NCBI GenBank assembly: GCA_003990765.1
Contig: RBNJ01000290.1
Coordinates: 1-33,993 of the forward strand
Reading direction: 5' to 3'
Length of the DNA stretch: 33,993 nt
Source: Jimgerdemannia flammicorona
Lineage: Eukaryota
Part shown: positions 9,080 through 33,993 of the stretch, one piece after another
How positions within the stretch are numbered: position 1 is the first letter of the stretch
Layout: each line of letters begins with the position of its first letter
Program-made: the position numbers and the translations under genes
The notes under the pieces: model-generated
What the model saw: only the letters and a program-made list of their open reading frames with translations
The model's database searches: none
Told to the model about the DNA's origin: nothing

Positions 9080-9295
9080 GTCACAATAGCAGATTAATTT
9101 AAATGAAGGGCGTGATTCACGGCGGATCAAATCCTTTAATGGAGTTCTACGAAAGAAAAAAAAAAGAAATGACAACCAGACTACTACATCGCGTCGCATC
9201 GTCCCATACCATAAAGTTACATGTAAAAAACATATAAAGCACTCCATCTCTCTCACAATTACCATGAATAATAGAAAAAAATATACATGTCTTTC

Positions 9296-9300
<5 letters not shown>

Positions 9301-9366
<66 letters not shown>
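9301..9366 (+). repeat. Poly(A)66 tract
   Basis: Direct reading of the sequence. Confidence 0.95.
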
Positions 9367-9368
<2 letters not shown>

Positions 9369-11330: not shown

Positions 11331-11450
11331 ATATAAAATATATATATTTATTTGACCAATATATATATGTATATAATATGAAAATAAAATAAAAATAATA
11401 AAATAAAATACAGTTATTCTATAACTAAATATCCCTTTTATAACTAAATA

Positions 11451-13850
11451 CTAAACATCAATAGATTGAACCATACTTTGAGAAATATGGCAATGTAAAC
11501 GATATTTTTTTACTACATATTCTGCAGCAGCTAAAGTAAGTTTCTGCCAATATATAATTATAGATTTTTGACAATAATATGCATATTTTCAGATAGTAAG
11601 AAGGTCAATAGATATTAAAGCTTTAGGAATATTTTTCTTCAGTCCTATCCATGTATAGTCACAATGAATTCTAATTATTATAATTAACAAAATATTAATA
11701 TTAATATTCTAATTATCATATTTATTTGCTAATTTAATAGATCTATATATATACATATCTGCAGTATAGTTTTACAGTACTCTAAAAATGTTCAATGTAA
11801 TTTAATTCACAATAAAATTTTGGATAAAAAATACACTTATGACCTAAGGCTTCAATGGTCTCTTGAATAAGTAGTTTTTATACTATAAAGTTCTCTTGAA
11901 GAGACATTATTTTTTCAGCACAACAATTGTTAGTCTTGTATACTTCTTGACATCTTGCTAATATTTTTTCTTTTGGCTATAGACCTCTTTCTTTAAGTAC
12001 TACTTTTAATCCTTTTGCTTGACCTTAAAGATTTTCATCAGAATAATCAGATGGAAAAACCATTTCTTGTAAAATACCATTATATGTTATAGTATACATC
12101 AATGGTTGCTTTCCACCTAGATTAAGATTCATCTTATGAGCCAGTAGAGCATCTGAGACATATATTGAGTATCCTTGACTATTGTCAAATGCAAATACTC
12201 CAATACAGTTTGGGTGAACTGCTTTGAAAATTGAAATTGCCATTGTTATAATCTAAATATTAAATAAATAAAAATAAAAATTTTGTTTTGAGTATACATT
12301 TATATTCTGAACAATATTCAGCAGTAAAAGGCCTCCCATCGACCATTCTCTGCCATTGAGTCTCTATCAGTGGTTCTCTACCATCAAGCCTGCATCAATT
12401 GTTCTCTACTATTGATTCTTTATTAATGAGAATTTACAATGAAAATTCAGCAGTGATAAACCTCTATTAACTATTCTCTATCATCAAGCCTTTATTATAT
12501 ATATATATATAATTATAAAATATATTTATCTATTGAAGTATATCTTCATCAGTCCAATATTCTTCATGATTTTTGCCAACTTCAAATAAAATACATGCCT
12601 CTCTTGGAAATATTGCTATCATTTTTGAATATTTTTCTTCAAGTATAGCTAGATGTCCAATAGTATCTAGAAGAAATTCACTCACCATTAAACCAGCATC
12701 TCTACTTTTTTTTCTCAAAGGTTGTTCTTCTTTTGGTCCCCATCTATATCTAAGATCATCATTAGTATTGAAAACAGCTTCATCATGAGTAATTAAGATA
12801 TGTTGTTCTCCAAATAGAATGTTGTATGGTAATGGTTGAAGATCTTGATCATATTTAACCATTAATGATTCCCATCCAGCTAGTTGTTGTAAGAATTATT
12901 GATAATGAGCTTTAACATCTTTATGTTTATAATCATCAACATAAATTCCTTTTCTGCATTTGCTGTAAACATATTCCATTTTGATCATCCATCTTCTTAT
13001 AGTTTCTTTATGAATAGTTGTCACTTTTATTGATAGATTAAGTGCTGGAAAAATTTCTATCTCCAAATGTTTTTTAAGTGTTCTAGGAGTTGCTGTAAAT
13101 TTGTTATCTTGTAAATAAGTTATAACTGCATGTTGAACATTTATCTCTTCAAGAAGACTTTTAACTTTTGAATGTTTTTCTTATTTGATAGTAGAAACAA
13201 GTCATTCATCAATCCAATCCTGTCTCCATTTCTACAAAAGTTTTGCATAATAATATCCATAGTTGACACTTTCTGTAATAAGATTACTGATCTCAAAATT
13301 ACTATGAGATATGGTGAAGTCATAAAATCATAGACAGAGAGAGATCTTTTGTTGTTTTTATAAAGTTTTGTAGTACCCCAATATGAATATCATCATTGTC
13401 ATCATCATCACTATCTTCTTCATAGTTATCAATTTCATCTTTATCTTCAATATTATTATCTTCATCTTCATCATCCTCATCCTCATCCTCAGTATCATCC
13501 TCACTATTGTCAACTTTCTTCTCTTTCTCATCCTTATTATTATCTTTTTCTTCTTTATCATTCTTGTTTCTATATATAACAAATTAATTATATTATTAGA
13601 TTTTATATATATAACTTTTTTTTTTTTTAATTTCTATATAGATTAATAATTTACTTTACATACTTTAGTATATTTTGGTTGCTACTACATTCAGATGGTA
13701 GTGGTAATAGTGATGGGGAAGTACAGAGAGTTGAAAGACTTGAAGATTGCAAAGAAATTGCCTTATACATATCCTTAATAATTCTTCATCTTTTCTAATA
13801 TCATATCTCCCTCAGCTGAAGTACTTGTTTTGTCAATCATCTCATTTATA
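11451..13850 (-). pseudogene. Intron-containing DDE transposase pseudogene (IS630/Tc1-like, long D-E spacer); further small 5' exons may extend to ~14840
   Basis: Motifs in order: an acidic tract (13380-13570), KHSKVKSLL, ETIRRWM, KGIYVDD, ITHDEAVFNTND (D1), QPLRKK, GKNHEEYWT, FAFDNS (D2 at 12184-12186), GGKQP, KGLKVVLKERGL, GHKCIFYPKFYCELNYIE (E at 11791-11793), CDYT, AEYVVKKY, then a stop at 11451-11453. Introns inferred at ~11672-11758, 12253-12529 and ~13570-13665. Many TAA/TAG/TGA stops sit at expected Q/R/W codons. Confidence 0.88.
12318..12493 (-). repeat. Same modular array, reverse orientation, inside transposase intron 12253-12529
   Basis: gaccattctctgccattgagtctctatca...gagaattt...aattcagcagtgat is the reverse complement of the modules. 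Confidence 0.85.
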
Positions 13851-13898
13851 CTGTAATTATAATATAATATAATATAAAGGTTAACATAAAAGGCTTAT

Positions 13899-14622
13899 AG
13901 AATTCTCATTAATAGAGGCTCAATAGTAGAGAACCATCAATAGAGGCTTGATGGTAGAGAGTGGTTGATGGAGGCTTGATGGCAGAGAATAGTTAATAGA
14001 GGCTTAATGGCAGAGAATGGTCAATGGAGACTTGATAGCAGAGAACTGTCAATAGAGGCTCAATGGCAGAGAACTGTTATTGCTGCTGAATTCTTATTGA
14101 TAGAGACTCAATGATAGAGAACCATTATAACTACTAAATTCTCATTAATGGCAGAGAACTGTCAATGGAGGATTGATGGCAGAGAACCATCATTGCTGCT
14201 GAATTCTCATTGATAGAGGCTCGATGAGAGAGAATGGTCAATGGAGACTCAATGGCAGAGAACTATCATTACTGCTGAATTCTCATTAATGGAGGTTTGA
14301 TGGCAGAGAATAGTCAATGGAGGCTTGATGGCAGAGAACAGTCAATAGAGGCTTGATGACAGAGAATGATCAATGGAGGCTCAATGGCAGAGAGCAGAGA
14401 ACAGTTAATAGAGGCTTAATAATAGAAAACTATCATCACTGCTGAATTCTTATTGATGGAGGCTCAATGGTAGAGAACCATCAATAGAGGCTCAATGGCA
14501 GAGAACAGTTGATGGAGGCTCAATGGTAGAGAACTGCCATCACTGCTAAATTCTCATTGATGGAGACTTGATGGTAGAGAATAGTTGATGGAGGCTTAAT
14601 GCCAGAGAACCATTGATGGAGG
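13899..14622 (+). repeat. Same modular array, forward orientation, filling a putative intron (13851-14630)
   Basis: The 28-bp period is visible (unit starts at 14314 and 14342), interspersed with the 20-bp GAATTC module. On the minus strand it is bounded by GTAATG (14630) and TTACAG (13851). Confidence 0.92.
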
Positions 14623-14843
14623 ATCATTACTTGTTATAGCAAAATCCTTCTTGCTAATAGTATTGATACAGCAGCATTATAGGCATAGTTCCATCTAGCT
14701 GATATATATATATATATGTAAGATTATATTTTTACATATCTTGTTTGAAGTATAGATAGGTAGGTTTGTAGGTGTATAATTAGTATCAATAAATTTTGAC
14801 ACAAATCAATATTTCTAAGTCCAACAGAACAGATAAGTATCAG

Positions 14844-15612
14844 TGAGCCTCTATCAATAGTTCTCTCCATCAATCATTCTCTACTATTGAGCCTCCATCA
14901 ATGAGAATTCAGCAGCAATGAGCCTCCATTGACCATTCTCTGCCATCAAGCCTCCATCAACTGTTCTCTACTATCGAGCCTCCATCAACTATTCTCTGCC
15001 ATCAAGCCTCCATCAACCATTCTCTGCTATTGATCCTCCATTGACCATTCTGCCATTGAGCCTCCATCAATGAGAATTTAGTGATGATGGTTCTCTGCCA
15101 TTGAGCCTCCATTGACCATTCTCTGCCATTGAGCCTCTATTGACCATTCTCTGCCATCAAGCCTCCATCAATGAGAATTCAGCAGTGATGATGATTCTCT
15201 ACCATCAAGCCTCCATTGACCATTCTCTGTCATCAAGCCTCTATCTGAGAATTCAGCAGTGATGAGCCTCCATTGACCATTCTCTGCCATTGAGCCTCCA
15301 TTGACCATTCTCTGCCATCAAGCCTCTATCAATGAGAATTCAGCAGTAATGACAGTTCTTTGCCATTGAGCCTCTATCAATGCAATGAGAATTCAGCAGC
15401 AATGAGCCTCCATTGATGGTTCTTCGAGGCTGAATTCTCATTGATGGAGGCTCAATGGCAGGGAACTGTTGATGGAGGCTCGATGGCAGATAGAGGCTCA
15501 TCACTGCTGAATTCTCATTGATGGACATCAGCAAGCCTCCATCGACAGTTCTCTGCTAGCAGTCCTCCATCAATGAGAATTCAGCTTCCATCGGCAAGCC
15601 TCCATGAGGATT
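14844..15612 (-). repeat. Same modular array, mainly reverse orientation, with a short forward block at ~15428-15527
   Basis: gagcctccattgaccattctctgccatcaa and gagaattcagcagtgatga repeats. The orientation flips at ~15425 and flips back at ~15530. Confidence 0.92.
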
Positions 15613-16559
15613 CAACAACCAATATAATATATATAATATATAATAGAGTCTAAAAAATGATCTTTTTAGTTTTTTTAGTTGATATTTATCACTAATGTAT
15701 GACTGCATTTCATTTTTTAAAATCGACTGTGACGAGTATAGGCGTGGTGCACTATACAAATGAGGAATACCATTAGCAGCTCCACAGAATAACAACATTC
15801 CTAAAGTTAACCTCTCAAAAGTAATTTAAATCAAGGAAACGTATAATTATCCAAAGATAACAAAGTACGGATTACAAGCAATCCCACCAGCCTCCCCGCT
15901 CCACCATAGTTTGCAACGAGTGATTCCCCCAAAGGTAATTTCAGACTGTTCAGACTTGGATATTGTTGATCATCTACCGTCATCTCTTTTCTCGCCTTGC
16001 CGCCAACACGTTGAGCGTTGCCTTCATGTCCGTGATTGGCGTTTTCATGTCGTCTAAAAAGAATTAAGAATAACAAATTTGAGACCATGTCCATCTCTAA
16101 TGCTCGTAATTATAAAGCTAGTACTGATACATGCTCCATTATTTCAGACTTACTTTTTCCTCCTCCGAAATTGAGCACATGACGACGCTTTCGAGCTGAC
16201 GAAATTCTGTCATGTCATCTGGTCCAAGGAAGATAATCCTGTCTAGAGTGTAGGTCAACACTCTATTTGTAACGTGGCCATTGTGTGTCATTGGTGTCCG
16301 TACATTTCGAAATTCGAAAAGCTGCTCGTACATATGTTCGTCACCTGAAATGAAATAAAGAAATTTAGAAGTGTTCCCACTATTGACGCTTGCAAAAAAC
16401 GTTGCGTACCTGGGCGGGGGTCAGGAAGTGTTTGCTTGAATGTGGCATAATTATGTAAAATGCATTTGATTGCTGCGTCCGGTGACCATGCTCTCAGGGC
16501 AGTCGCACGAATCCCTTCGTTATTCTCCCTGACGCAGTTGATATTGTACCATGTTACAA

Positions 16560-16712
16560 AGCTTACGGCCATTCCGTGTCCTCGTCTCCATAATAATGCC
16601 AGAACGGGCATGTCGTGGTCGCGATGTTGCTTGTGGCCTCGGAGCGGACGCAACGACAAAGAAAACGATGGAGACACACCGCTTCACCTTGCTGCGCAGT
16701 AAGGGCGACAAA
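16560..16712 (+). pseudogene. Ankyrin-repeat gene fragment, frameshifted and truncated at a CpG-depleted block
   Basis: Across frames it reads CQNGHVVVAMLLV / LGADA / NDKENDGDTPLHLAAQ*G, matching the ankyrin consensus (G.TPLH.AA..G, LL..GAD.N). Confidence 0.75.
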
Positions 16713-16715
16713 GAA

Positions 16716-17575
16716 ACCCCTGAACAAGAAGTCCCTGAACAGGAGGAACTCTCAGAACTTATCCCCTGGAATAACTCTCACTGGACACCACCAGAAGATG
16801 ATGACCCCTGGAATGCTGAAGAAGGACCAAGCATAGTTACTATTACCCTAAGATGAGAAATATACCAGGAAAGTGCCTTTCAGCTAAGAAGATACCAGCA
16901 TTAAAAGGTCTTCTGCTCTTTCCAAAACTACTGCTATTAGTGCCACTTATTGGACCAACAAGAAAGACAGAGACACTGCAGACTAGGATCCCCAATCACA
17001 ATTATGTAGATAACCACCCTCTAAGAAACCACTATAATGTTGAAAAGATGAGCTAATGTATAAGATCACTTCACCTGAACAGAAGTACAGCCCTTATGAT
17101 AAAGATAGATACTGATTCCTAAGATAGTAAGAAGTCAATAACTAAGAACTATATTTTCAAGCAATGGGATATTGCAATTATGAAAAATACTCAGATTGCT
17201 GAGATTGTCTATATCAGAAGATTTATTTCAGCCAAGATATTACTATATATATACTGAAGAAAGGAGATAACAGAGCTCAGATATAAAGAAACCAGGCCAA
17301 GAAATCAAAGAAAAAGGCTCTTAAGATCTATAATCTAGGAAATGATATCTTAGTTCTTATTAGATATAAAATCTGTTAAGGATGGATAGAAGACATCATC
17401 AGCTTTATAGAAGTCCTAGATTCTATGAGAAAAAGAGGAATCAATTATCTCTGAGATCCCTCTACTGGAGCCAGATGATGGCACCTCAATCTTAGAGTCT
17501 GGGAGCTCATATTCATTAGAGCCTCAGCCCAAGAACAATCCAAACTCATTGAACTTATTACCCAATATATTTTGT
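16716..17575 (+). mobile_element. CpG-depleted, A-rich degenerate coding segment, possibly the pre-RT part of a Ty3/gypsy polyprotein
   Basis: A long frame interrupted only by C>T-type stops ends in QEQSKLIELITQY, which resembles the segment preceding gypsy RT. No diagnostic motif was seen. Confidence 0.3.
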
Positions 17576-19110
17576 TACCATTTCTTTCTCCACTAACATT
17601 CACATTACACAAACTTCACAACATACTCTTGAGCAGTTTATTGGAGAAAGATACTAGTAATATAGTAATAAATAAGTAATTTTATAGGTATACTGTATTG
17701 AGAGGGCCTGGGGCATTTAACTAGCAATATATTAAGAAGAACTATAGTATAGAAATGGAGTTCTTTGGCAATACTGGTGGTCAGGAAAGAGTTGACAGAA
17801 GTTGATAGCAGAGATTAGTTAGCAGGAGGTTAGGTCAGATGAGCTTTGTAGAGAAGATAAAGACAGGTAGCTGGTCTGGAGATATTAGAGATAGGAGATA
17901 GAAGGAGAAGAAGAAGTCAAATACTGAGAGAGCTGGGGGGTCACTGTTAGATAGAGCAGGCATAGGGGCTGGGAGAGCTATTGCTGGAAGCCATTAAGTA
18001 ACTGCTGATAGTAATATAATAAGAGATCTGAAAAAAAAAAATCCAGATATAACTACTGATGATAAGGTTGAGTATATTGGATATATAAGGAAAGAAATCT
18101 AATAGATAGTATAATAGGCCTAGTAGTAGTTCTAGTACTCAAGAAGTTGATCTCAGAATTTACAATTATATTGTACTTCTAGAGGCTAGCAGTAATAGGA
18201 AAGATGGTCTTGAGATAAATTGTAAACTAGCTGACTAGTACTGTCTTAATAAAGTTTCTATATAAATTGGGGGAAGTTAAGATAGAGTTTGAGGAGGAGA
18301 GGCCTTTGATGAAGGCCATAAAGACTGAGTTGTTAGTTGAGAAAATAGTACTGATGGCTCAATATATAAGGTGAGATCTGAGAGTAATTTAGCTACTAGT
18401 GAAAGAAATACCTATAGTGATAACCATCAAGATGAGGAGGAGAATAAAGAAGATCATGAGAGAGTATAGAGAGATAGTAAATGTTAGATTTCAGATATAG
18501 GAGGAGACTATATTTAGGATAAGAGATATAGATATATAAATTTAGCTTACAGAAAAGGAGAATACTGAGAAGACTAGGGACTGGTCTTTAGTACTGATGT
18601 GAGATATTTTTACTTATAAGATAATGAGAATGAAAGAGAGTAAGAAGGAGGAGGAGAATTTGTTAAAGATTCTGAAAGATTTCAGTAGAGTAGTAAAATG
18701 ACAAGTAGTGGTATAGTGAGTTTATGAGACTTTGATATACTTAGAGATAATAAATGACAAGATGATTTAGATAGATAAAGTGATGTGAGAGAAGGATTAG
18801 AGGAGAAAGAGATAGAGAGATCTGCTGGCTAACCTGAAGGAGAGGCTGATGACTAGGGCTAGAGACAGTTCAGGAGGAGTAAAGGTAAGTAATTGGACTG
18901 AATATGATATGGAAGAGAAGGTGGGGGATAAGGTGCTAAGATGGGAGACAAGAAGTCAATAGCTCTATTATGATAGTATGCTTGAGATCTGGAAGAAGGA
19001 AGAGGAATATTTAATATAAGTAAATATTTAGAAGAGGAGAGATGTGGAGAATATAAAGATAAGAAGCATACACAGGGTCTGGTTTGGGGTACCAGATATA
19101 GTAAAGAGTG
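17575..19110 (+). mobile_element. 5' part (5'UTR and ORF1) of a LINE related to the copy at 20570-25518; heavily mutated, 3'-truncated
   Basis: Collinear similarity: 17998 gtaactgctgatagtaatataataagagatctgaaaaaaaaaaatccagat vs 20914 gtaactgctgatagagctgtaactagggatctggaaaaaaatccagat; 18562 gactagggactggtc vs 21435 gacaaggaactggcc. Confidence 0.75.
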
Positions 19111-19117
19111 AGCAGTA

Positions 19118-20350
19118 GTCAGAGTAATAACTAATCATACTGCTCTCAAATAGTAATTTAACTATAAGAAACTATTAGAATTCTTGTCTACTAGATTCTT
19201 ATTTTACAGAATTACAAAATCACTATTATTTACAAATCAGAAAAAGCTCATAATAATATTAATGTACTTTTCTATCAGTCTCAATAAACCAGAAAAAGAA
19301 TGTATTAAGGAACTATACTCTAAAGAAAGCTTCTATAACTATTAAAGTACAAGAAGATCTCATCTGATAAGAATATTAGAAAGCTCACTAAAGATAAGTA
19401 AACATAGAAGAAAAGTTATAAATAATATACTAATACTGACTCTACCTCTGAATACAAGTCTGAGACATATTCAAGAAATGTAACATTTACTAGAAGTATT
19501 AAGAAAAGAAGAACTATCAAGTATTACTACAATCAATCACATCATTAGTCTATTTCTTTCAAAGATAGAAAGTAGATATTATTAGATCTTTGCCAGTTAT
19601 ACTAAGAAGAAATAAATATATTCAAATATTTATAGAATATCTAACTAAATGACCTAAAGCTTTTTCAATAGAAATTGCTGATGTCTTAACTATTATAGAC
19701 CTCCTCTATAGCCTCACACTCAGATATAAACTCTCAGAAGAACTTATTTCTAACTGAGATATAGAATTCATTAATAATATAATTATAAATTATACCTGAA
19801 TTTACAAGATTCACCTCAAATGAACAACATCATACTACTCTCAAACTAATAGTATGATAGAATAAATAAACCAGACCATTAAGAAAGAACTTTTCTCTAT
19901 CAATTCTACTAACTAAGACCTCTGCTTATCTGAAATTCTATGAGAAATTCAGAACACCCCTATTACCTCTATCAAATAAAAGTCATTTAAGATGATATTT
20001 ACTAAGAAGACTAGAACTGTTAATTATGAGAATCTTGGAGACCTCCTCAAAAAGCCAGAACAATTGTATAATTAAGCCTGAGCTCAGATAATCAAGACCC
20101 AGGAAAGACAAAAGAAGTACTATGACCAGAAGCAGAAGGATTAGAAGATTCAGATTATAGGTCAAGGAGAAGTATGATTGAAACAAACTTTGCTACCAAA
20201 ATAAAGCTTAAATAGAAAGAACCTTATCTTGTATACAATATCAGAGAAACTAGTATCTATTTGAGAAGTATAGATAGATGTACTCTGAAGACTCCAGTCT
20301 ATATCAATTATCTTAAGATATATCTGTCAGTTCCCTTGCCTCAGTTCTGA
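19118..20350 (+). mobile_element. Ty3/gypsy pol fragment: RNase H C-terminus and integrase (decayed)
   Basis: VITNHTALK, ILQNYKITIIYKSEKAHNN (cf. VITDH.ALKWL, YKPGK.H.NADALSR), then IEYLTK*PKAF, ELISN*DIEF and TTSYYSQTNSMIE*IN (rve core). Confidence 0.8.
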
Positions 20351-20569: not shown

Positions 20570-23500
20570 AGACTATCAATATAGACAGCAATGAGCATAC
20601 TGATGGGTATACTGGCCAGGGAGACAGCAGTGCCTTTGACTGACAGTAGGTCAGAAGGAGGTGAGGAGATTGTTTGGAGATGTCAGAGCCCCCAAGGGTT
20701 GGCCATGGTATTGGTGGCAGAGGGAGGGGTGGAGTGAGGCAACAAGGAAGTGGGAGGATGATCTTTGCTGATAAGGTTAGGATGGGGACAATGATATCAG
20801 GTCTGGATAGTTGGTTGAGACTGAGGAAAGTATTGACAGCTACAGCTGGGGGACAGAGAGGGGCCCTCATAAGAGGGACAGGCAGTAGAGGGGGGGGAGT
20901 AGGGCTGGGGGTGTAACTGCTGATAGAGCTGTAACTAGGGATCTGGAAAAAAATCCAGATGTGACAGTTGTTGGTAGATCAGAACAGGGGAAGAGCATGA
21001 GGCCTGAAGACCTGGCCAATGGCATGATGGGTATGGTGTTGACACTATTACTCAAAAAGTAGAGGTCAGAATTCGCTGTCACATTGTACTTCCAAGACTT
21101 GGTGGTAACTGCAAGGATGATTTTGGGGCTGGTGGTATAGGAGGTGAAGGGGGTGGCTTCAGTGAAGTTTTTGAAGAGAAAAGAAGAGGGTAGTGGTGGG
21201 TGAAGTAGTGGTTCCTATGGCCAGGTGTATGTGCTGGAACCCTTGTATAGTGTAGTTGACAGTATTGAATCTTCTGATAGTATCAAGGGAGAGAGCCAGG
21301 GAGCTGATTGTGGAGGTGGTCAAAGAGTATGGAGAGATTGTGGACATTGGGTTCAGAGTCTGAGAGAGTACTGAACTCAGGACTAGAGACATTGATGTCA
21401 GGGTGAGGCTGGCTGGGAGAGAGAATACAGAGAAGACAAGGAACTGGCCAGCAACTCTTAAATGGGGACTGGTTGAATGTAAGGTTGTCTGGGTGAAAGA
21501 GATACAAGAGGAGGAGGAGGACTTGCTGGAGGCTCTTGAAGATCTGGCAGGAGCAGTAGAGAGGAGGAGATTGGCTTGGAAGGAGTATGAAGCCAAAACA
21601 GTAGTGGAGATTGTAGATGAAAAGAGGGTCAGGATGGACCAGATGGCCTGAGAGAAGATGCAGGGGAGGCAAATCCAGAAGGAGCTGTTGGAGAAGTTGT
21701 AAGAGAGTATGGTAGATATTAGTGTAGGAGAAGATGGTACTGGATAAGAGAGTGACTGGGCTGGGGAGTACTGGACAGCTCAGAGTGTGGCCAATGGTAG
21801 ACTGAGTAAGGAGGGATGGAGAGGCACAATGGAGGATGCAGAAATGGATGAAGAAGTGCATCCTCAGTATAGTGTTCTGGGCAGAGTGAGGGGTGAGGAG
21901 GAGCTACTAGATATACTAGAGGAGGAGTGAGATGAGTCAGTGAGGAGGAGCACTTTGGTGGTCTCTGTGGTGGGGGTCGAAGGGATCACCCAAGGTGTTG
22001 TAGAGGCAGTGGATGAAGAGAAGTAGCTGTGGAAGGCTCTGGAGAGAGTGGTGGCAGAGGAGCTGAGGGGTGAGGATTTCTGGATTTTGAGTAATAGGTA
22101 TTAGGAAGAAATTCTCCATGGTGAGAAGGTGTCAAGGAAGATTAGGAATGAGATCCTGGCAGTACTCTTGGAGTCAGTGGAATATCAGATAGATGATCAG
22201 AGGTAGGAGGCCCTTTGAAGGGCTGCAGATGACTGGGCAGCATACTTGTAGGGGTCAAGGAAGGGGCTGGAGAAGTGGAGGGTGGTGTGTGAGAATTATC
22301 AGATAGCAATAAAGGTTGTGGATGGGACAGAGTATCAGGAAATATTAGAGGAAATTGATGCTCAGGCTGTAATAGAAGATGAGGTAGAGGCAGAGTGGCA
22401 TTTGGATCTGGTTAGTAACAGGATGAGCATAGAATACTAGATGGGGTTCTCCTTATCAAACATTATTCAATATGAACAATATAACTTATATTTTTTCTTT
22501 GAACATAAATAGATTGAGGGGTGCAGCATGGTGAAGGAATATCTTTGGCTGGTTGAAGGGGCTAAATGTAGATCTCTTCTTACTACAGGATATATAGTAT
22601 GAGACAGAAATGGATTTACAGAACTGGACTAGAGAATGGAGTGGAGCAGCTGTGTAGACAGGGTGGGTGGACATTCTGGTTTGAAAGGAGATGGGGGACA
22701 TTGGGAACATTGGACACTGGGAGAGTAGGTTGGTATAGAGAGTAGAGAAGAGGCCTGGGTGGAACCTTTTAACAGTAGGGTCATGTTGTTGCCTGGCTGA
22801 GAGGGAGGAATGTATAGATTGGATCAGAGACTTGAGAGAAGCTAGAGTTATGGATGAGGTAGGGATTGATTGTCTGGGGGGGAATTTTAATATAGTATAT
22901 GATAGTAGGGTGGACAGGACTGATGGAGAGAGAAGAATGGAGAGCAGAAGTAGCAGGCTTGAAGATTAAATAGAGATAGAGAGATTGAGCTCCTTGATTG
23001 ACTCAGAGTGATGGTTTTGGGTGGATCACTGAATTTATACTTACTGGTTAGCAGGGCTGGGCTCCAGAATTGACTGGGTACTGATGGCAGAGTACTGGGG
23101 AGTGGATGTCTAGAACATACTGGAGGTGGTTTGGTGCCTGTGGTCAGATCACTGGGGTCTGATAGGGAGTGGGAGATTTGGGGGAAGTGGAGATGGGCCT
23201 GGATATTAGCAACTAAATTCTTCTTTGTTGGAGGATGGTTCCTTATAGTCAGATTGAGAGGTGGAAGTTATTGAGAAGATTGGTAGGTGGTGGAAGCAGG
23301 GATTAGTGATTAGAGACTGCTGGCAGCAGTTGAAATCAAGTGCTCAGAGGTACTGGAGGGAGGCAGGGAAAGGAAGGAGTGCTCAGTGGTAGTAGTGAGT
23401 GCAATGGGCTTTATAGAGATTGGTGGCACTTCTGGGGAGGTGGGTGGGGTTGCTGGAGGATTAGGGGGGGGCTGATTGGCAAATTCTGCAGATACAAAAG

Positions 23501-25518
23501 GAAATAGATGAGCTAAAGAAAGTGTTATGAATAGAGGAAGAGGCTCAGCTAAAGGGTATGGTGGTAAGGTTGTGGTGGCAGAGGTTGGAAGAGGGGGAGA
23601 GGTCTACTAGATTTCTTTCATAGTTGCTCCAAGCTTAGAGAACCAGATAGTGGTGGGATGGTATTTTGGATGAGGATGGAGAGATGATGGCAGGAACTCC
23701 TGAGATTTTGGGATTGCTGAGGACTTACTAAAGGAATTTATGGAGTAATGATGAAGGGGGTGAGGATGTCCTGAACATTGAACAACAGCTGGAGGATTGG
23801 CATCCAGATCCAGCACTGGGTCTGGAGATATTGAGAGATCCAGTGTGGGGAGAGAATGTATGCAAGGTCTTGGCTTTGATAAGCAAGGGGACAGCTCCAG
23901 GAGAGGATGAGCTGCCCTGGAATTTTTGGAAGAAGAAGGCTGGGGTAGAGGTGGTATTGGAGAAGATGATGGTGATGAGTAGTGAGGTCCTTTGGTCTGG
24001 AACTTGGATTGGGGGCCAGTACCTTGGGCTGATCTCCTTGCTCTATTAGGATAAGAGAAGAAGAGAAGTTGGAAGAACTGATGACCAATCATGCTCCTTG
24101 ATATAGACTGTAAGCTAGTGACAAAGATCTTGGTGACTAGATTGCAGGGGATCACTCAGCAGATACTAGGAGTAGAGCAGAGGGGATTTGTTGGTGGTCA
24201 GTTGATCCAATATGGAACTGCCTGGGTCTATGGGGTGATTGAAGGGGCTTGGGCAGCTAGGATTGATGGCCAGTTAGTGTTTCTGGATCAGGAGAAAGTG
24301 TATGACAGGGTGAGGAGGGTCTGGCTGAAGGGAGTGTTGAAATATATAAGAGTTCCCCCAGAGGTCCAGAGGTCTTTAATCAGTCTTTTGGAGAACAGTC
24401 AAGTAGTATTGGTGGTGAATGAGCACAGGGGTGTGACTTTTCTGCTAGACCATGGAGTGCCACAAGAGGATCCTTTGTCACTCATCATATATGCCCTTTT
24501 TTTGGAGCCCCTATTGGACAGAATCCAGTATCGAATTGGGGGTTTAGACATTTTGGGGATTAACTAGAAGGTTGGGGCTTTTGTGGATGACAGAGTGGTT
24601 AGACTAGATTCATTAGAGAATGTAGAGAAATTAAGAAGGACTGTAGAATGATATGAGAGGGGCTCAGGTACTTGACTCAACTGGTACAAATGTGAGACTC
24701 TGGTGCTAGGCAGCAGAATAGTTGGTGGTAATGTGATTGGAAAAGTGGTGCCAGCAGGAGAACCAGTCTGATACTTGGGGATATACTTTTCAGTATATGG
24801 GTCCCTTCTGCCCTATATCTGGTAGGAACAGTAGCTACTAGCATGAGAGAATATTCTCTTGAGGTAGGATGGTTGGTATATATCCTTGATAGGAAGGATG
24901 ATGGTGCTGAATGTATATTGGCTGCCAAAGCTGTGGTATGTGGAGTATCATTTAGACTTCTTAGCATGGGTGGTTGGGCAACTTCTGAAGATAACAAGAT
25001 CATAAATTTGGGCCAGGCAGAGAAGTCAGATAGGCTGGGAGATTCTGACTCTACCTGTTGACAGAGACAAGCTGGGCTTAGTGAACTTTACCAAGTATCT
25101 CTATTGCCTGAGAGCATGATGGCTAAAGAGAGCAAGTGAGTTGAGGGGCTGAGAGTGGGTACCACTCATGCAGAGAGTGTGGGAAGTCTGGTATTCCTCT
25201 CATGGAGTGACTGGTGACTTGCTTGCAATAGTGGCTATAGACAGGAGTAGGAGGATGCATTATAAAGACTTTTGGTGGGGAGTGGTGGATGGTACAAGGA
25301 GAATTGGACTTCAGTGGCAGGGTGATGAGAAGGAGGCAGACTGGAGACCACAGATGTAGAGATGGGATAGACTACTGCTGAGAGGTATATTGGTGGAGGA
25401 TTTTCAGCTTGGCAATGGAATGGAATATATATGAGGGCTCAGGGGAGACTTGTGGCCTGAAGCATAGCAAAGGGTGGGGATTGGCAAGGAGTAGGACTGG
25501 AATGGTATTTGGCCTTGA
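20570..25518 (+). mobile_element. L1/Tx1-like non-LTR retrotransposon: ORF1 (~20570-22470) and ORF2 APE endonuclease-RT (from 22473), decayed, 3' end missing
   Basis: APE motifs FSLNINRL, DLFLLQD, LGGNFN (~22874), SRIDWV (~23063) and WSDH (~23140). RT motifs APGEDEL, N**PIMLLDIDCKLVTKIL, QRGFV, FLDQEKVYDRV, GVPQEDPLS and AFVDD (~24578). ORF1 has an RRM-like segment (VKEYGEIVDIG). No poly(A) tail. Confidence 0.92.
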
Positions 25519-26310
25519 GATATCATTGGACCACTACCAGTAACAATATCAGGAAACTACTATATTATAGTTATTGTAGACCTCTTTTCCAAATAGATAG
25601 AAGCAGGAGTATTACAAGAAGCCAATGCTCTCTCTATAGCCGACTTCCTGTACTGAGAAATCATCTGTTGCTATAAGACACCAAGGCAAATCACCATAGA
25701 CTGTGGCACAGAATTTATCAATGAATTCTATGAGATAATATATCAGAAATATAAGATTCAGCACATCAAGACCACTGCATACCACCCTCAAGAAAATGGA
25801 CAGACAGAAAGAACCAACAAGACCCTCAAGAACATCCTGGTGAAAATCTCAGACATATATGAGAATTGAGATAACTACCTCCTAACTGCCCTCTCTGTTC
25901 TATGAGACATGTAGTCACAGAGCACATACTTTACTCCAAGAGAACTGCTCTTTAGAGAAGAAGATTCTGATGGAACCTCAGCCACAAATCTAGACCTAAC
26001 TTAGAGACAGATCAATGCAGAAATCTGGAGATTACACCAAATCAGGAAGAAGGCCATCAATAAGTTACAAGTACTGATAAGGAAGAATGCAGAAAAGAAT
26101 CACAAGACCCTAGAACTCATCCAAATCAGAGAAAAGGTCCTACTGTATCAAAATATGATAGAAGCCTCATGGTTGCAAAAACTGGAGCCTAAATGGGAAG
26201 AACTCTTCTATATGTAAGATATTAAGAGAACTATCTTCTGGTTTAGAAAAATCTCAGGAACTATACTGTCTACTACAGTATACAGGAACAGACTCAAGAA
26301 GTACTATGAA
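25519..26310 (+). mobile_element. Ty3/gypsy integrase (rve plus C-terminal region) of the element ending in LTR copy A
   Basis: DIIGPLPVTISGNYYIIVIVDLFSK*IEA, QITIDCGTEF, TTAYHPQENGQTERTNKTLK, KLEPKWEELF, RNRLKKYYEP. Confidence 0.92.
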
Positions 26311-26673
26311 CCTATACAAGAGAAGCAAAATGTGATAACTGCCTGAGAGATTCTAGTCTGTGAATCATAACAGCATATCCTGTGACTGGCAGGCTTTCTG
26401 TCTGAACTATTCTCTAAAAGATACAGCACCAGCAACTACTCATCCATGAGACTTTTAAAGCCAGAGGAATTCAAACCATCAACTGATTGATCAAGATCAG
26501 AATCAGGCCCTTGCTCTATATGAAGGGAGTGACCCTTTACCATTATACCAAAATATATAGAGAAGATACCAGTCCATAAATACCACTTTTCAACCCCTTA
26601 CTAGAGGTTATGGGATCAGCAAATTTTTCAGAACTGGACCAATGAATAAGGATATTCAAGAAGATCCTTATTT

Positions 26674-26683
26674 AGGAGGAAGA
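26674..26683 (+). promoter_or_regulatory. Polypurine tract preceding the 3' LTR
   Basis: aggaggaaga lies immediately before TGTAAC, the position where similarity to the two solo LTRs begins. Confidence 0.75.
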
Positions 26684-28258
26684 TGTAACACTGATCCCAG
26701 AATAATGACATCAGTACAAGAGATAGCCTTTTCTTGCAAGTTACCAGATTGGAATATAAGAAGATCATATAGCATATAAGATGAGCAATTATGACCCACC
26801 GTGAGTCATTTTGATCACAGTATAGGTATCTTGAGGAATATAAAAGAAGAATTAAGGAACTGTAGTAGCAGTAACTCAACAAGACCCACCAATCCCAAAA
26901 TAGCTCAAAGGCTTACCACAAATGAAATGTCTGCTGCTCACTAAACCTCAAGGTCAAGAAACCACCAAGATACCTCAGTTGAAGAAAGGATGTTTCAAGA
27001 CATCTGAAGAGCCATGAGGACCTGCACAAGAAGGACTTCTAGTGTTAACCTGGGCACTAGTGACCCTTATCACTATATTCTCTACTACTGTAAAATAGAA
27101 ACAAGGATCACCATTACTACCAAATACCTCCAAATATAGCAGGAGTATGAAATAGGAAACCTCCTCTGCTGGGAGTTCCCATAGGCCAGCCCTCAAGAGT
27201 TATAAGATACCACTCTCATAGATATATAAAACAAGAACAGCTAAAAAGATTCATCAGATCTTCAGGTATGTACCATGGTCAATCTCCAACTTAGAGTATG
27301 TTAGAGTCTCAGACTTCAGAGACCTGTCAGCTCACCATATCAATGCACTAGAAGCCAGAGTAGCTATAGAAGCCCAGTCTACTATCATCCTCAATAGTGA
27401 TAAAGTAGAAGACTTCTGGCATCCCATTCTCCAGGACAACTCAGACTAATTTCTGCAAGGATTGGTCTCAGTATTCTAAGGCCCAAGTATCCAGATTAGA
27501 CCTCCCTAAGACTTCACATTTGTTCCCTATTTTGTGGAAGAGAACCTTGTAGACTGGAGAGCTCTAGACCTCCTTGTTTCTACTACCACCAAATATGATG
27601 ACATCATTGCCAATGATGTCATCCTGCATGATATATGCAAAACATGTGACTTATGTAATAATGATGATGATGAGATAGATGCAACATTCATGGACCTCAT
27701 CTCTTTCAAAGATATCCTAATGAGGATAAAACCACTATAGTCTTGAACATTCTGCTCTAAGTCCTTTGGTTATACTTAATAATACCAGTACCCTTTTCCT
27801 ATATAACAGCTATTCCTCCATCAGTATTCTGATGTGACTCAGAATTATTCCAGCACTATTTTCCTGTATCACTGAAATTATACCAGTATTCTGAATCTAT
27901 ACAACCATCAGTGCTGACACTGGAACTTAGCAGTTTTCCATATTCTGGCATTTTATTTTAGTTATTGGAATTTATATTTAGCTTTATATCTTAGCAATCA
28001 TTGAATTATATTTTGTATAAATATCCCTCTTATTTCTTCTGAAATAAAGTTAGTTCTAGTTCACTTATGTATATACAATCTCTTGCAGACAATCTAAGAG
28101 ATAACAGGATAGTTTAAAGATAAGAAGTTTGATGACTATAAGACCTTGGGAAGGCACTCCAATAAGAACTTGTTTATAACAAACTTGAGTTAGTCTAAGA
28201 GATATACCTTAAAGAGAGTCTGATGTATTTGAAGAACTCAGTGACCACTATGTATAAC
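26684..28258 (+). mobile_element. LTR copy A (3' LTR, ~1.57 kb)
   Basis: Starts TGTAAC after the PPT, ends ...ctcagtgaccactatgtataaca, and is collinear with the reverse complements of 29024-30536 and 31075-33105. TATAAATA at 28016 and AATAAA at 28042. The right boundary is uncertain by a few bp. Confidence 0.88.
26927..27760 (+). pseudogene. Decayed ~280-codon ORF of unknown function inside the LTR (copy A)
   Basis: ATG at 26927. The frame is shared with copies B (~29500-30285, minus) and C (31581-32420, minus, 840 nt). Most stops in one copy are CAA/CAG/AGA in another. Confidence 0.65.
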
Positions 28259-29023
28259 AATACCAAGGTCTTTTCTAAATTAGATCTTTATTCTGATTAT
28301 CATCAAGTCTGTATCAAGAAAGAAGATGTTTCTAAGACCACTTTCAAGATATGCTGTAGTTTATAGGAATTCTTGATCATATCATTTAATCTTACCAATG
28401 TACTACCAACCTTTTAAAGATTGATTATATTCCATAACCATATCTTAATATCTTTATTATTAACTACTTAGATGCCATTCTGATATTAAATATATCAGAA
28501 AAAGAACACTTTAAGTATCTTAGATAAATGTTCAAGAAATTATAAAAAAATAAGCTTTACTGTAAGCTTAACAAATATAAGTTCTTCAAGAAGGAGAGAG
28601 AATATCTTGACTATATTATCTCAGCCAACAGTATTTAGCCTGACCCTAAGAAGGTTTAAACAGTCTCAGATTGATCTATTCTAATAAATATTTATAATAT
28701 CAGGTCTTTTTTGAGACTATCAGAATACTATTACTGATTCATTAAAGGCTATTTTTATATTGTCAAGTCTATGACTAAATTGTTGTAAATCAGTAACCCA
28801 TTTCAATAGACTCCTTCCTGCCAAGAGATATTTCAAACCCTAAAGACAAAATTAATAACTGTATCTACTTTATATAACTCAGACCCAGCTCTATACTTTA
28901 CAGTTACTACAGATATATGGAGATATATAATTGATGCAGTACTATTTCAAGATATAAGCAAAGAACTCTAGTCAGTTATATATTCTTCATGAAAGTTGAA
29001 TGAGACTGAATAAAAATATATAT

Positions 29024-30536
29024 TTTCATGTAGTGGTTACTGAGTCCTTCAAATATGTCAGATTCTCTTCAAGGTATATCTCTTAGACTAACTCAAGTTT
29101 GTTATAAGCAAGTTCTTATTGAAATGCCTTCTCAAGGTCTTATAGTCCTCAAACTTCTTATCTTTAAACTGTCTTGTTATCTCTTTAGATTGCTTGCAAG
29201 GAATTGTATATATTACACAAAAGAACTGACTTTATTTTGAAGGAAATAAGAGGGATATTTATCCAAAATGTAGTTTAAAAGTTAATAAGATATAAAGCTA
29301 AATATAAATTCCAATAACCAAATAAAATACTAGAATACAGAAAACTACAGTTTTTGGTATAGATTTCAGTATTGGTATAGATGATTATATAAGAAAAAGA
29401 TGCTGGAAGAATTCTGAGTTATATAAGATCAGAATGTCAGTAGAAGGATTAACTGTTATATAGAAAAAGGATGCTAGTAGAACTCAGTATTATCAAGAAC
29501 TTAAAGCAGAATGTTCAGGACCATGTGGGCTTCATCCTCATCATTGTTGAAGGAGATGAGATATGCAAATGCTTTATTCATTTTGCATATATCATATATT
29601 TCATATATGTCACATAAGATGATGTCATCATTGATGACATCATCACATTTGGCAGGGGCTCTCCAATCTATGACATTCTCTTCAACAAAATAAAGAACAA
29701 ATGTGGAGTCTTAGAGAGGTCTGATCTGGATGCTGGGGCCTTGAAATACTGAGATCAATCTTTATAAGAACTGATCTGAGTTGTTCTGAAGAATGGGATA
29801 CCAGAACTCTTCTACCTTATCACTATTGAGAGTGATAGTGGACTGGACCTCTGTAGCTACCATGGCTTCTAGTGCATTGATATGACAGGCTAACAGACTG
29901 AGACTTTGATATACTCCAAGTTAAGGATCACTCATAGTATATGCCTGAAGATCTGATGAATCTTCTTGACTATCCTGATTTCATATATATCTATGGGAGT
30001 GGTATCTTGTAGCTCTTGAGGGCTAGCTTGAGAGAATTCCCAGTAGAGGAAGTTTCCTATTTCATATTCTTACTACATCTGGGGGCATTTGATAGTAATG
30101 GTGATTCTTGTTTCCATCTTGCAGTAGTAGAGTATATAATGATAAGGATCATCAGTACCTAGGTTGACACTAGGAGTCCTTGTGGTACATGTTCTTATGG
30201 CTCTTCAGATGTCTTAAAACATTCTTTTCTAGACTGAGGGGCCTTAGTGATTCCTTGATCTTAAGGTTTGATAAGCAGCAGGTATTTTGTTATAGTAAGT
30301 CTTTAGAACTATTTCTGTGAGCTTGTTCAGATTACTGCTACTGTAGTTTCTTGATCCTTCTTTTATATTCCTTGAGACATCTGTCTTGTGGTCATAACAA
30401 CTCATAGTTGATCATTATTACTCATCTTATAGCCTGAGTGAGTTATGCTGTATGATCTTCTTATACTCTGATCTGGTGGCTTGCAAGAAAAGACTATCTC
30501 CTGTACTGATGTCATCATTCTGAGGTCACTATTACA
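29024..30536 (-). mobile_element. Solo LTR copy B
   Basis: Reverse-complement homolog of 26684-28258, flanked by ATAT (29020-29023 and 30537-30540). It interrupts the host RNase H. Confidence 0.88.
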
Positions 30537-31074
30537 ATATGCTACTTATGAAAAAGAACTTCTGGCTATCCATAAAGCTCTATAAAATTTGCAATATTAT
30601 CTCAAAAGCCAAGACTTTGATATTATCACTGATTATAAGTAAATCATATACTTTAACTTGAGTCTCTATTTATTTTCAAATATACAAAATAGATCAAGTA
30701 TATTTAAGCTTTTAATATCAAGATTATCTATAAGCCAAATAAGATAAATATAGTAACTAATGTCCTATTAAAAAGGCCTGATCTTAGTGCCATTAAGGTG
30801 ATTCTAGACAAGACTCTTTTGGATAAACTAAAAGAAGAATACCACCAGAAGCTGATCCAAAAGAAATTTTTACAAGTTTACCAAAAGAATGTAAGATTAC
30901 TGATAGAATTATATATAAGAATGATAAAATATATATCCCAAATTCCAATAATCTTCACTTTAAGATTCTCTGACTCTCTTCTTACTGGTCACATGAGATA
31001 TCAGAAAACTATCTACAATATCTGACATTATTTCTTCTGGCCTGTAATGAATCAAGATATCAAGAAATATATAT

Positions 31075-33105
31075 TGTCACATAGTAGTCACTGAGTCCTT
31101 CAAATATATCAGATTCTCTTCAAGGTGTATCTCTTAGACTAACCACAAGTTCGTTATAAGCAAGTTCTTATTGGAGTGCCTTCCCAAGATCTTATAGTTC
31201 TCAAACTTCTTATCTTTAAACTGTCTTGTTATCTCTTAGATTGCTTGCATGGAATTGAGGATAAATGAACTGAAACTGACTTTATTTCAAAGGAAATAAG
31301 AGTGGTATTTATACAAAATATAATTAAATTATTGCTAAGTTATAAAGCTAAATATAAATTCCAATAACCAAATAAAATACTGGAACACAAAAAACTATGA
31401 TTGTAAGTACAAGTTCAAGTATCTGTATAAATAGTTGCACAAGTTCAGGATGCTAGCAGAATTTCAGTAGTATAGAAAAAGAATACCAGAAGAATTTCTG
31501 AGTTACATAAGATCAGAATGCCAGAAGAATAATAGTTATACAGAAAAAGAATACTGGTAGAATCCAGTGTTATCAAGAACTCAGAGCAGAATATTCAGGA
31601 CTATGGGGGCTTCATATTCATCACTATTATCAAGGCTAGAGGTCAGGGACAGGATGTCTTCAAAGGAGATGAGGTTCACGAAAGCTTTATCTATTTTACA
31701 TATTTCACCTATATCATGCAGGATGATGTCCTCATTGATGATGTCATCTTATTTGGTGGCTGAGAAAGCAAGGAGATTCAGGGCTCTCCAATCTATGACA
31801 TTCTCTTCTACAAAATAAGAAACAAATGTAGGGTGTTGGGGAAGTCTAATCCAAAAGCTAGGGCCTTAGAATGCTGAGATCAATTCTTATAAAAATTGAT
31901 CAGAATTGTCCTCAAAAATAGGATTCCAGAACTCTCCTACCTCATCACTATTGAGAGTGATAGTGGACTGGGCTTCTGTGGCTATTATGGCCTCTAGTGT
32001 ATTGGTATAGTGGACTGACAGTTTCTTGAAGTCTGAGGTTTTAGTATACTTCAAGTTGGGGATTGACCATAGTACATACCTGAAGACCTGATGAATATTC
32101 TTAGCTATTATTATCTCATATACATCCATAGGAGTAGCATCTTGTATTTCTTGATGACTAGTCTGAGGGAATTCCCAGCAGAGGATATTTCTTATTTCAT
32201 ACTCCTGCTATATCCAGAGGCATTCAGTAGCCATGGTGATCCTTGTTTCCATTTTATAGCAGTAGAGAATATAATGATAACAGTCACTAGTACCCAGGTT
32301 AAGGCTAGGAGTCCTTCTTGTCTGAGTCCTCATGGCTCTTCTGATGTCTTGAAATATCTTTTTCTGGACTAAGGGGTCTTGGTAGTTTCTGGACCTTGAG
32401 GTTTGGCAAGTGGCAGGTATTTTTTTTGTGGTAAGTCTTTAGAACTATTTCTGTAAGCTTTATTTAGGCTACTGCTACTGTGGTTTCTTGATCCTTCTTT
32501 TATATTCCTCAAGATTTCTGTCTTGTGGTCATAAGGACTCATAGTTGGTCATCATTACTCATCTTGTAGCCTGGATTAGTACTCCCAAATGAGTCGAATC
32601 AATTTGAATCAAATCAAATTGAGGGTTAAATGAGTCAAATCGAATTGGGGATTTTTCAATTCGAATTAATTCAAATCGAATCAAAAGTCAAATTGAATTG
32701 AGGGTCTGATTCAAACCCTAATTTTCAAAATGTAATAACTCAGCATAAACTCATCCAAATCTAATGTACTTTAGCTTGTTAGAATCACATTAATACGGTG
32801 AATCTAACAAGCTAAAATATGTTAAATTTAAATGAGTTTTCATCGAGTTATTACATTTTGAAAATTAAGATTCAAATCGAACTTCGAATTGAATTGGACC
32901 TTTGATTCAATTCAAATCAAATTGAATTGGACCCTTGATTTGATCGAATCGAATTGAGTTTGAGCCAAATTCGATTCAATTCGATTTGTTGGGAGCACTA
33001 GCCTGGATGAGTCATGTCATATGATCTTCTTATGCTCTGATCTAATTACTTGTAAGAAAAGGCTGTCTCTTGTACTGATATCATCATTCTGAGGTCACCA
33101 TTACA
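31075..33105 (-). mobile_element. Solo LTR copy C (contains the MITE)
   Basis: TGTCAC...TTACA ends, flanked by ATAT (31071-31074 and 33106-33109). Removing it plus one ATAT restores the host frame KKYISIYNH. Confidence 0.9.
32577..33000. mobile_element. hAT-type MITE, 424 bp, fold-back structure
   Basis: TIRs tagtactcccaa / ttgggagcacta match at 11/12. The 8-bp TSD gcctggat is perfect (32569-32576 and 33001-33008). The element is absent from the homologous site in LTR copy B (~30430). It has internal inverted arms and GAATC/GATTC subterminal motifs. Confidence 0.93.
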
Positions 33106-33993
33106 ATATCTATCTACAATCACTATCAAGAACAAGACATCAAGATCACAGCCATATGGTCTACTCCAATCTCTCTCAGTTTTAGCTACAAAATAGAAAT
33201 AAGCCACAATAGACTATATTGTTTAACTACTCAAGATATCTTAAGGAAATGATGTCATTATTATCTTTGTTAACTATCTTAACAAAACTATCAAGTTGGA
33301 GTCAACCAAGACTAATGCCACTACCTCTGATATTTAAGACAATTCTTCCAAATTATGGTCTTCTAAAGATTATAATTAGTAATTAAGATCTGAAATTTAC
33401 AAGTCATTTCTGACAGATATTATTCAAGACACTTGAAGCCCAAGAAGCTCTAAGTACAGCATACTACCTACAGACTAACAGACAAACTGAGCAAGTAAAC
33501 CAGACCCTTAAGTAGATATTAAGAATCTATATTTCTTATAAACTAGACAACTGAGAACAATATCTTATCTTAATTGAGTTTGTCTATAATAACTCAGTTC
33601 AAGTCTCAATAGGCTTTATATCTTTTAAGTTACTATATGGTCAAGATATACAAACTCCATCAAGTCTACTTGTTTAAGTTGAGAAAGAACTTTTTAATAT
33701 TTCCATTACCTAAGACCTCATTGATGATATAGCTACAATAATTTAAGTTGTTAAGAACAATTTAATCAAAGCTCAGATATGTTAAGTCAAATATACCAAT
33801 ACTAGAAAACAAGAGATCAAATTCAAGATCAGTGATCAAGTACTCTTATCTACTATAAATATCAATTTGATATCTCAGATTAACCATTCTTCTAAAAAAC
33901 TCAATCAAAATACATTAGTCTTTATGAGATACTTGAACAAGTATCTCCTATCTCTTTGTTGGTATTGAAATGTAGCCAAATTTGGCTGCAAAA

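Follow-up and report, generated by a model that had tools for sequence, protein, structure and literature searches.

Can a retrotransposon's long terminal repeat (LTR) be the home of a gene? The question is raised by a stretch of 33,993 nt from Jimgerdemannia flammicorona (contig RBNJ01000290.1, assembly GCA_003990765.1; hereafter the window), in which a unit of about 1.5 kb recurs between positions 26,684 and 33,105, each time with the remains of the same open reading frame (ORF). An earlier interpretation made from the letters alone, which we call the sequence-only reading, had proposed that the unit is the LTR of a Ty3/gypsy family and that it encodes a protein of about 280 residues. Our analysis leads us to consider it highly probable that a real gene lies inside a real LTR; the repeat family thus appears, unusually, to carry its own protein-coding gene. 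For the fuller account, in which the LTR-borne gene is also driven by its own promoter, we would put the probability at roughly one half. The three copies in the window are old pseudogenes, relics rather than a working gene.

A reading frame shared by three decayed copies

Comparison of 26684-28259 with the whole window by blastn identified exactly three copies of one repeat unit, A, B and C, and no further match. Relative to copy A, copy B is 75.3% identical over 1597 columns (aligned 30536..29031), and copy C is 76.3% and 81.6% identical in two blocks (32568..31079 and 33105..33019, respectively). The copies and the frames that they contain are given below, with the stops of copies A and B counted in the alignment to the frame of copy C.

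26684..28259, + strand: LTR copy A, 1576 bp; likely to be the 3' LTR belonging to the adjoining element 1 (see below)
29024-30536, - strand: LTR copy B, 1513 bp; inserted as a solo LTR, with ATAT duplicated at 29020-29023 and 30537-30540
31075-33105, - strand: LTR copy C, 1599 bp after subtraction of a foreign insertion; solo, with ATAT at 31071-31074 and 33106-33109
26927..27760, + strand: ORF relic of copy A; ATG kept, 8 stops, 2 frameshifts
29501..30285, - strand: ORF relic of copy B; start ATA, 9 stops, 1 frameshift (-10 nt near 29897)
31581..32420, - strand: ORF relic of copy C; 279 codons and a stop, free of frameshifts, interrupted by 4 stops, start ATA
27137-27139 (A, +), 30075..30073 (B) and 32210..32208 (C): shared TAG at codon 71, where proteins P0001-P0003 and the metagenome contig L001 (both introduced below) have Trp

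The claim that one frame is common to all three copies is borne out both by their alignment and by tblastn, in which intact database proteins match the window with E-values of 1e-113 to 1e-42. Such sharing lies far beyond chance. The frame traced in copy C from 32420 to 31581 holds over its full 279 codons and stop. Seven of the eight stops of copy A are sense codons in at least one other copy, chiefly through CAA/CAG against TAA/TAG, which agrees with the sequence-only reading; across the set, nearly all stops are TAA or TAG opposite CAA or CAG, or TGA or TAG opposite TGG, in another copy. It was also right that only copy A retains the ATG, the other two having ATA, and that the TAG at 27137-27139 is present in 3/3 copies, since its equivalents could be located in both B and C. 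One detail has to be revised. The indel that separates copies A and C near the tail was taken to be 27 nt long and in frame, but in the alignment it measures 28 nt and is hence out of frame, so that the conserved tail of copy A (...IVLNILL*) now lies in frame +2. The other frameshift of copy A is a loss of 2 nt near 27223-27234.

Transitions outnumber transversions among the copies by 4-7 to 1, and the observed/expected (O/E) ratio of CpG is 0.08 over 26684-33105, compared with 0.02 in a LINE-like block (LINE, long interspersed nuclear element) and 0.69 over positions 1-9000. It is mostly C>T and G>A changes that have destroyed the copies, in DNA nearly free of CpG. Classic repeat-induced point mutation was considered and ruled out: CpA and TpG are undepleted (O/E 1.10 and 1.11) and TpA is unenriched (0.91).

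The protein family and the selection acting on it

We used the translation of copy C, with X at its stops, as a database query. It retrieved four intact proteins with E-values of 8e-107 to 1e-58. The longest of them, P0001, has 271 residues and is nearly identical to the rough consensus that had been assembled from the decayed copies. A profile of the four proteins detected only five proteins (138-342 residues) among 1.84 billion representatives, none of them fused to gag or pol. A wider profile run against a set of 5.8 billion detected 12 (87-342 residues), 11 of them at E <= 2e-32, and all 12 are encoded on contigs of 567-4848 nt, P0007 on the longest of these and P0002 on one of 1,625 nt. 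Identity to P0001 falls to 27-37% within the family, yet P0007 and P0015 are still full-length open frames of 325-342 residues. Every sequence with a complete N-terminus (6/6) starts with MP[A/P]. At the DNA level, a peptide pattern combined with tblastn led to the metagenome contig L001 (1345 nt), which has an intact ORF of 323 codons. No family locus was seen in viral contigs, and a candidate among prokaryote genome contigs (L002, from a bacterial metagenome-assembled genome) matched over 15 residues only and was rejected as a chance hit. Judged by these searches, the gene is a member of a small, conserved, orphan protein family.

The intact homolog made it possible to ask how the frame has evolved. 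Between L001 and copies A, B and C the dN/dS ratio in the claimed frame is 0.21, 0.13 and 0.12, respectively (pS 0.63-0.73, pN 0.24-0.26), whereas the two control frames, computed for L001 against copy C only, give 1.06 and 1.30. Among the three copies the ratio is 0.21-0.36 in frame against 0.60-1.17 in control frames. All these are Nei–Gojobori (NG86) counts with stop codons skipped and under a strong transition bias, so that it is the contrast that counts and not the exact values. Counts by codon position among A, B and C alone were weakly informative. Taken together, the data strongly support the view that the frame derives from a real gene under purifying selection, pseudogenised in the window copies. 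The in-frame ratio of 0.21-0.36 among the copies further suggests that they diverged in part within an active lineage that was under selection. The proposal of a real gene for some 270-280 residues within the repeat is therefore upheld by the intact homologs, by dN/dS values of 0.12-0.21 and by the conservation of the start and of the flanking motifs described below.

L001 has a CpG O/E of 0.10 at a GC content of 43%, although its ORF is intact. The family seems to be under long-term CpG loss while the ORF stays open.

The repeat as an LTR and how its gene may be expressed

Whether the gene lies in an LTR depends on the nature of the repeat unit, and here its neighbors are informative.

26674..26683, + strand: polypurine tract AGGAGGAAGA, a 10-nt purine run touching the TGT of copy A, read from the sequence
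25483..26683, + strand: 3' part of element 1, gypsy-type; integrase core, end of pol and an untranslated tail of ~380 nt
28260..29019, + strand: element 2, the host gypsy element, from reverse transcriptase (RT) to RNase H; Pfam RVT_1, RT_RNaseH_2, RT_RNaseH and Integrase_H2C2
30541-31070 and 33110-33993, + strand: element 2, continued; the first part runs from RNase H to the integrase zinc domain

Copies A and C have TGT...ACA termini, and copy B has kept its 5' TGT while its 3' end is mutated. The purine run at 26674-26683 lies ~380 nt past the end of the integrase-bearing pol of element 1, in which Pfam rve is found at about 25501-25789 and whose translation terminates in ...RNRLKKYYEP; among longer database proteins, the closest to this integrase is 41% identical. 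To its left copy A is flanked by the end of one pol and to its right by the middle of the RT of element 2, with no flanking duplication. Since these flanks are not contiguous in one gene, copy A is not a simple solo insertion, and the reading that fits best is that of a 3' LTR belonging to element 1 and nested in element 2. Copy B, in turn, splits element 2 cleanly, as the RNase H profile halts at position 47 and restarts at 47 beyond the copy, and copy C cuts Integrase_H2C2 of the same element. The integrases of element 1 and of the element at 33106-33993 have no DNA similarity to each other. All three copies are packed within 6.4 kb and have no interior of their own.

When the first 260 nt of each copy were compared with its remainder, the best matches were 9-14 nt long (E 0.004-1) and none lay at the 3' terminus, which indicates that the 1.5-kb unit has no terminal repeats. 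A miniature LTR element, or terminal-repeat retrotransposon in miniature (TRIM), was accordingly ruled out, as there are no short direct terminal repeats at the ends of the unit. The TG..CA ends, the 4-bp duplications, the polypurine tract before copy A and the missing internal terminal repeats together bear out the earlier assignment, and the claim that the unit is an LTR can be regarded as well supported within this window. No long locus of the unit was found among metagenome, viral or prokaryote-genome contigs.

Copies B and C are preceded by an identical 10-nt context, AAATATATAT (29010-29023; 31062-31074), and both duplicate ATAT. With three copies inside other gypsy elements and two in a shared context, insertion appears to favor targets of alternating AT or in repeat-rich chromatin.

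The positions of the putative expression signals within the unit are as follows.

A 26836..26846 (+), B 30360-30370 (-), C 32497-32507 (-): TATA-1, the TATA-like motif GAATATAAAAG, 88 nt before the ATG of copy A
28014..28050, + strand: TATA-2 TGTATAAATATCCCTC of copy A, followed by AATAAA at 28043-28048
B 29250-29265 with 29229-29237, and C 31300-31315 with 31279-31287, - strand: equivalents of TATA-2 and AATAAA

The upstream motif is identical at 11/11 positions in A, B, C and L001 and is found 65-88 nt upstream of the ATG, in DNA that is otherwise unalignable across the four sequences. In L001, B and C the leader from this motif to the start codon is free of upstream ATGs. The second box, TGTATAAATAYC-CTC, with AATAAA ~20 nt later, is likewise kept in all four sequences (4/4). 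Outside the ORF, L001 and the window LTRs align in short blocks only and have a few words in common in the last 200 nt. The last ~310 LTR columns are the best conserved, with 0.08-0.12 transitions per site versus 0.17-0.19 in the ORF. Because L001 extends ~96 nt past the AATAAA, it represents LTR-like DNA and not just an mRNA. LTRs in which R (the terminally repeated region of the RNA) is short usually have a TATA box closely followed by AATAAA, and with this layout the ORF would lie in U3 (the unique 3' region).

These features can be combined into one explanation. The 1.5-kb unit would be the LTR of a Ty3/gypsy-type retrotransposon and would carry, in sense orientation, a complete gene bounded on one side by the 5' end of the LTR and on the other by the LTR's own TATA/poly(A) block. 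A promoter of its own, represented by the conserved GAATATAAAAG found 65-88 nt ahead of the ATG, would drive the gene, and the mRNA would end through the AATAAA of the LTR, ~285 nt past the stop codon. Paired and solo LTRs alike would then act as self-contained units, each yielding an mRNA of ~1.2 kb. Genomic RNA would start behind TATA-2, with no copy of that poly(A) signal at the 5' end. The resulting arrangement of two promoters per LTR is the one that we favor, tentatively, on the strength of the motifs and their spacing.

What might the product do? From a basic, Arg-rich N-terminus (net charge +8 for residues 1-45 of P0001) the protein passes through a helical core to an acidic tail, in which two short motifs, DLI-F and P..LNF-L, are conserved. 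The last 60 residues of P0001, P0002, L001 and P0008 have a net charge of -13 to -16, and the whole proteins of -8 to -34 (six members scored). This build resembles viral and cellular transactivators, and the likeness in composition is the sole support for a regulatory role. The product could conceivably be a nuclear regulatory factor that acts in trans on the family, either as a transactivator or as a counter-silencing adaptor; the suggestion draws on the Arg-rich N-terminus, the helical core and the strongly acidic tail with its hydrophobic motifs, and we regard this part of the explanation as possible but doubtful. Pfam assigned no family to two window copies or four family members, and a sequence profile search of the PDB gave 0 matches at E <= 1. 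In the ESM Atlas, P0001 yielded no lead (best score 0.83, best TM 0.33).

Several points weigh against the explanation as a whole or against parts of it. The AlphaFold models are poor, with a mean pLDDT (predicted local distance difference test) of 36 from 4 sequences and 50 from 9 sequences, and this leaves the functional reading with composition only. The check by AlphaFold and Foldseek that the sequence-only reading had suggested gave no fold lead: with the better model, which is still poor and thus makes for a weak test, Foldseek returned 0 PDB matches at E <= 0.001. VIA-align wide, an equally weak test with this model, reached a best Z of 3.9 over 48,161 chains. With a model of this quality, absent fold matches do not speak for a new fold. 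No 5' partner of copy A was found by blastn in the 26 kb that precede it, nor does the window show a full-length element having two LTRs together with a primer binding site. The transcription start, the poly(A) site and the borders of U3, R and U5 (the unique 5' region) are read from motifs only. L001 is the sole source of homologous DNA, the proteins reported by gene callers are open by ascertainment, and NG86 estimates are rough under transition bias, which the shifted-frame controls address in part.

A further difficulty is the TAG at codon 71. It occurs in 3/3 copies, compared with 0/12 such changes at four other Trp codons, and may be ancestral to this subfamily. If so, the source lineage may already have had a broken ORF, and the gene would be dispensable for transposition. 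Parallel hits, on the other side, are a possible origin of the shared stop. Gln codons have become stops at rates of 6, 6 and 2 of 16 per copy, stops common to just two copies are found in all three pairings, and for the 21 codons that a single C>T or G>A change would turn into a stop, ~0.4 triple hits are expected.

We next consider how else the same observations could be explained. Retroviral accessory genes such as sag and nef offer an analogy for an ORF that lies in U3, has no promoter of its own and is read through spliced or subgenomic RNA from the 3' end of the full-length transcript, the upstream TATA-like motif being an enhancer or a case of chance conservation. The sense ORF lies upstream of TATA-2 and AATAAA and so would be in the 3' U3 of genomic RNA, just as such a scheme has it. 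However, a TATA-like motif conserved at 11/11 positions at a promoter-like distance from the ATG, and a leader without upstream ATG in L001, B and C, are not what it would lead one to expect, and we consider it unlikely.

A smaller chance is left to the possibility that TATA-1 is the genomic promoter and AATAAA marks the R/U5 border. R would then be ~1.2 kb long, and genomic RNA would have the ORF as its first cistron and carry it a second time at the 3' end. Both the position and the conservation of TATA-1 fit this arrangement, and a single promoter suffices. It has no place, though, for a second, longer conserved TATA box ~20 nt before AATAAA, and transcripts from the 5' LTR would reach a poly(A) signal ahead of gag. 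In addition, an R of 1.2 kb is, to our knowledge, far above the lengths found in retroelements.

Alternatively, the unit could be the LTR of a non-autonomous derivative or a trans-mobilised cassette, with copy A a nested insertion beside element 1. There are no paired LTRs in the window, the region is a dense nest of elements, three copies occupy 6.4 kb without an internal region, and the protein database offers nothing close to element 1 (best 41% identity). But the 10-nt purine run abuts the TGT of copy A ~380 nt past the end of pol, precisely where a polypurine tract is expected, the flanks of copy A are not contiguous in any one gene, and the unit has no terminal repeats of its own. We therefore see only a slim chance for this explanation.

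LTR elements are known to capture host sequence, and the ORF might be a captured host gene or gene fragment that is conserved through its host origin and not through its use by the element. The protein indeed has no retroelement-like domain. Yet no longer or differently framed host relative turned up among the 1.84 billion representatives, and L001, which is at synonymous saturation, has kept TATA-1, TATA-2 and AATAAA along with the ORF, which implies that the ORF has long travelled with the LTR; capture in this sense is very improbable. Finally, the idea that there is no gene, the shared frame being chance or an ascertainment artefact in non-coding repeats, could draw on the three broken window copies, on gene callers that report open frames only and on low AlphaFold confidence, but it looks already refuted by the dN/dS of 0.12 in frame versus 1.06 and 1.30 out of frame, by members at 27-37% identity that keep open frames (two of them full-length, 325-342 residues) and by the MP[A/P] start in 6/6.

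Known systems and the surrounding sequence

LTR elements are known to carry accessory genes in the interval between their two LTRs, and a small number of retroviruses have them inside U3. The sag gene of mouse mammary tumor virus lies in U3 of the LTR, and nef of the human and simian immunodeficiency viruses and bel/tas of foamy viruses run into the 3' LTR. The ORF described here is similar to sag, nef and bel in that it is a sense accessory ORF in or into the LTR, is not required for core gag-pol chemistry and is doubled along with the LTR. It differs in its carrier, which is a Ty3/gypsy-type retrotransposon and not a retrovirus, and in that it would lie wholly inside the LTR with its own conserved TATA-like motif; moreover, it is known from sequence alone. 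The Sag, Nef and Bel proteins have no sequence, family or fold similarity to it by Pfam, PDB and Foldseek, the fold comparison again depending on a poor model.

Plant retrotransposons provide another comparison. According to two sources, additional ORFs (aORFs) of plant LTR retrotransposons sit internally, either ahead of gag or in the stretch from pol to the 3' LTR (PMC7264820, PMC3485330), and for ORF0 of the gypsy elements Retrosat2/RIRE3/RIRE8 a Ka of 0.26 and a Ks of 1.65 are given (PMC3485330). The review of sense and antisense aORFs makes no mention of an ORF in, within or inside an LTR (PMC7264820). The family shares with ORF0 and the aORFs that it is lineage-restricted, function-orphan, carried by gypsy-type elements and faster than pol yet constrained. 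Unlike them, the present ORF lies within the repeated unit and so is kept by solo LTRs. We ruled out that it is itself an internal ORF of the ORF0/aORF type, because it is found inside B and C, each of which is a whole insertion between duplications with no further internal sequence. Captured extra ORFs are also described for LTR retrotransposons of bdelloid rotifers (PMC5408684). They, too, are accessory ORFs added to LTR elements, with no LTR placement stated in the available extract (PMC5408684). In searches of the open-access literature with chosen phrases, no retrotransposon emerged whose LTR contains a complete conserved gene.

If the explanation favored here is true, a solo LTR would be a potential gene and not merely a promoter relic. 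The family would also provide a natural case for self-regulation of a retroelement in trans and would add a constrained orphan protein family without a known fold. One can go further and regard the LTR as the gene itself, a promoter-ORF-terminator cassette spread with each terminal repeat, and with solo LTRs leaving behind an expressed copy for a trans-acting acidic nuclear factor (a transactivator or counter-silencing protein) of a fold not yet seen, which would serve the whole family. Every insertion would then deliver two copies and each solo LTR would leave one, and the fitness of the family would depend on the dosage of the LTR-borne gene, beyond the full-length elements. This is speculative, and we think it unlikely. 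Since such ORFs are masked together with repeats, the family may far exceed the 12 proteins found.

The octamer TGACATCA/TGATGTCA, which resembles a palindromic CRE (cAMP response element) with its CpG lost, was noticed in the LTR copies. It occurs at window positions 26706, 27599, 27614, 29620, 29635, 30507 and 31739 and at positions 143, 749, 764 and 779 of L001, in which three copies are spaced 15 nt apart. The LTR copies, with 14% of the bases, hold 7/9 of its occurrences in the window. One site is near the 5' end of the LTR and the others are in the ORF part that encodes DDII..DVI repeats, so that the octamer could be a protein repeat, a DNA element, or both.

Copy C has itself been interrupted, as listed here.

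32577-33000, no strand assigned: foreign 424-bp insertion in copy C; not LTR, with 12-nt terminal inverted repeats TAGTRCTCCCAA

This insertion is flanked by an 8-bp target duplication, GCCTGGAT, at 32569-76 and 33001-08. It contains a long internal palindrome with arms at 32657-32788 and 32798-32929, and resembles what we take to be a hAT-type miniature element.

Elsewhere in the window, Pfam searches were largely silent: 17 ORFs of at least 80 residues gave just three weak sub-threshold rows at E <= 0.1, and 120 stop-to-stop frames of at least 45 residues (1-10000 and 15300-19500) gave 0 families at E <= 0.001. Rfam at its gathering threshold and a tRNA scan returned nothing.

A LINE-like element occupies about 20700-25480 (Pfam RVT_1 at about 24064-24787), between fragments of two different gypsy integrases (about 19700-20300 and 25483 onward). 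Its + strand is G-rich and C-poor, with a GC skew of +0.53 to +0.56 over 21001-24000, and its RT fragment retrieved generic RT clusters only from the ESM Atlas. Arrays of a 28-nt unit are present at 10262-11310, at 13909-14650 and, inverted, at 14865-15380. They have higher-order periods of 48, 56, 76 and 104 nt and make long inverted repeats around 11300-13900. There are also a run of 66 A residues at 9301-9366 and a run of 27 T residues at 2657-2683, which may be the tails of retroposed sequences.

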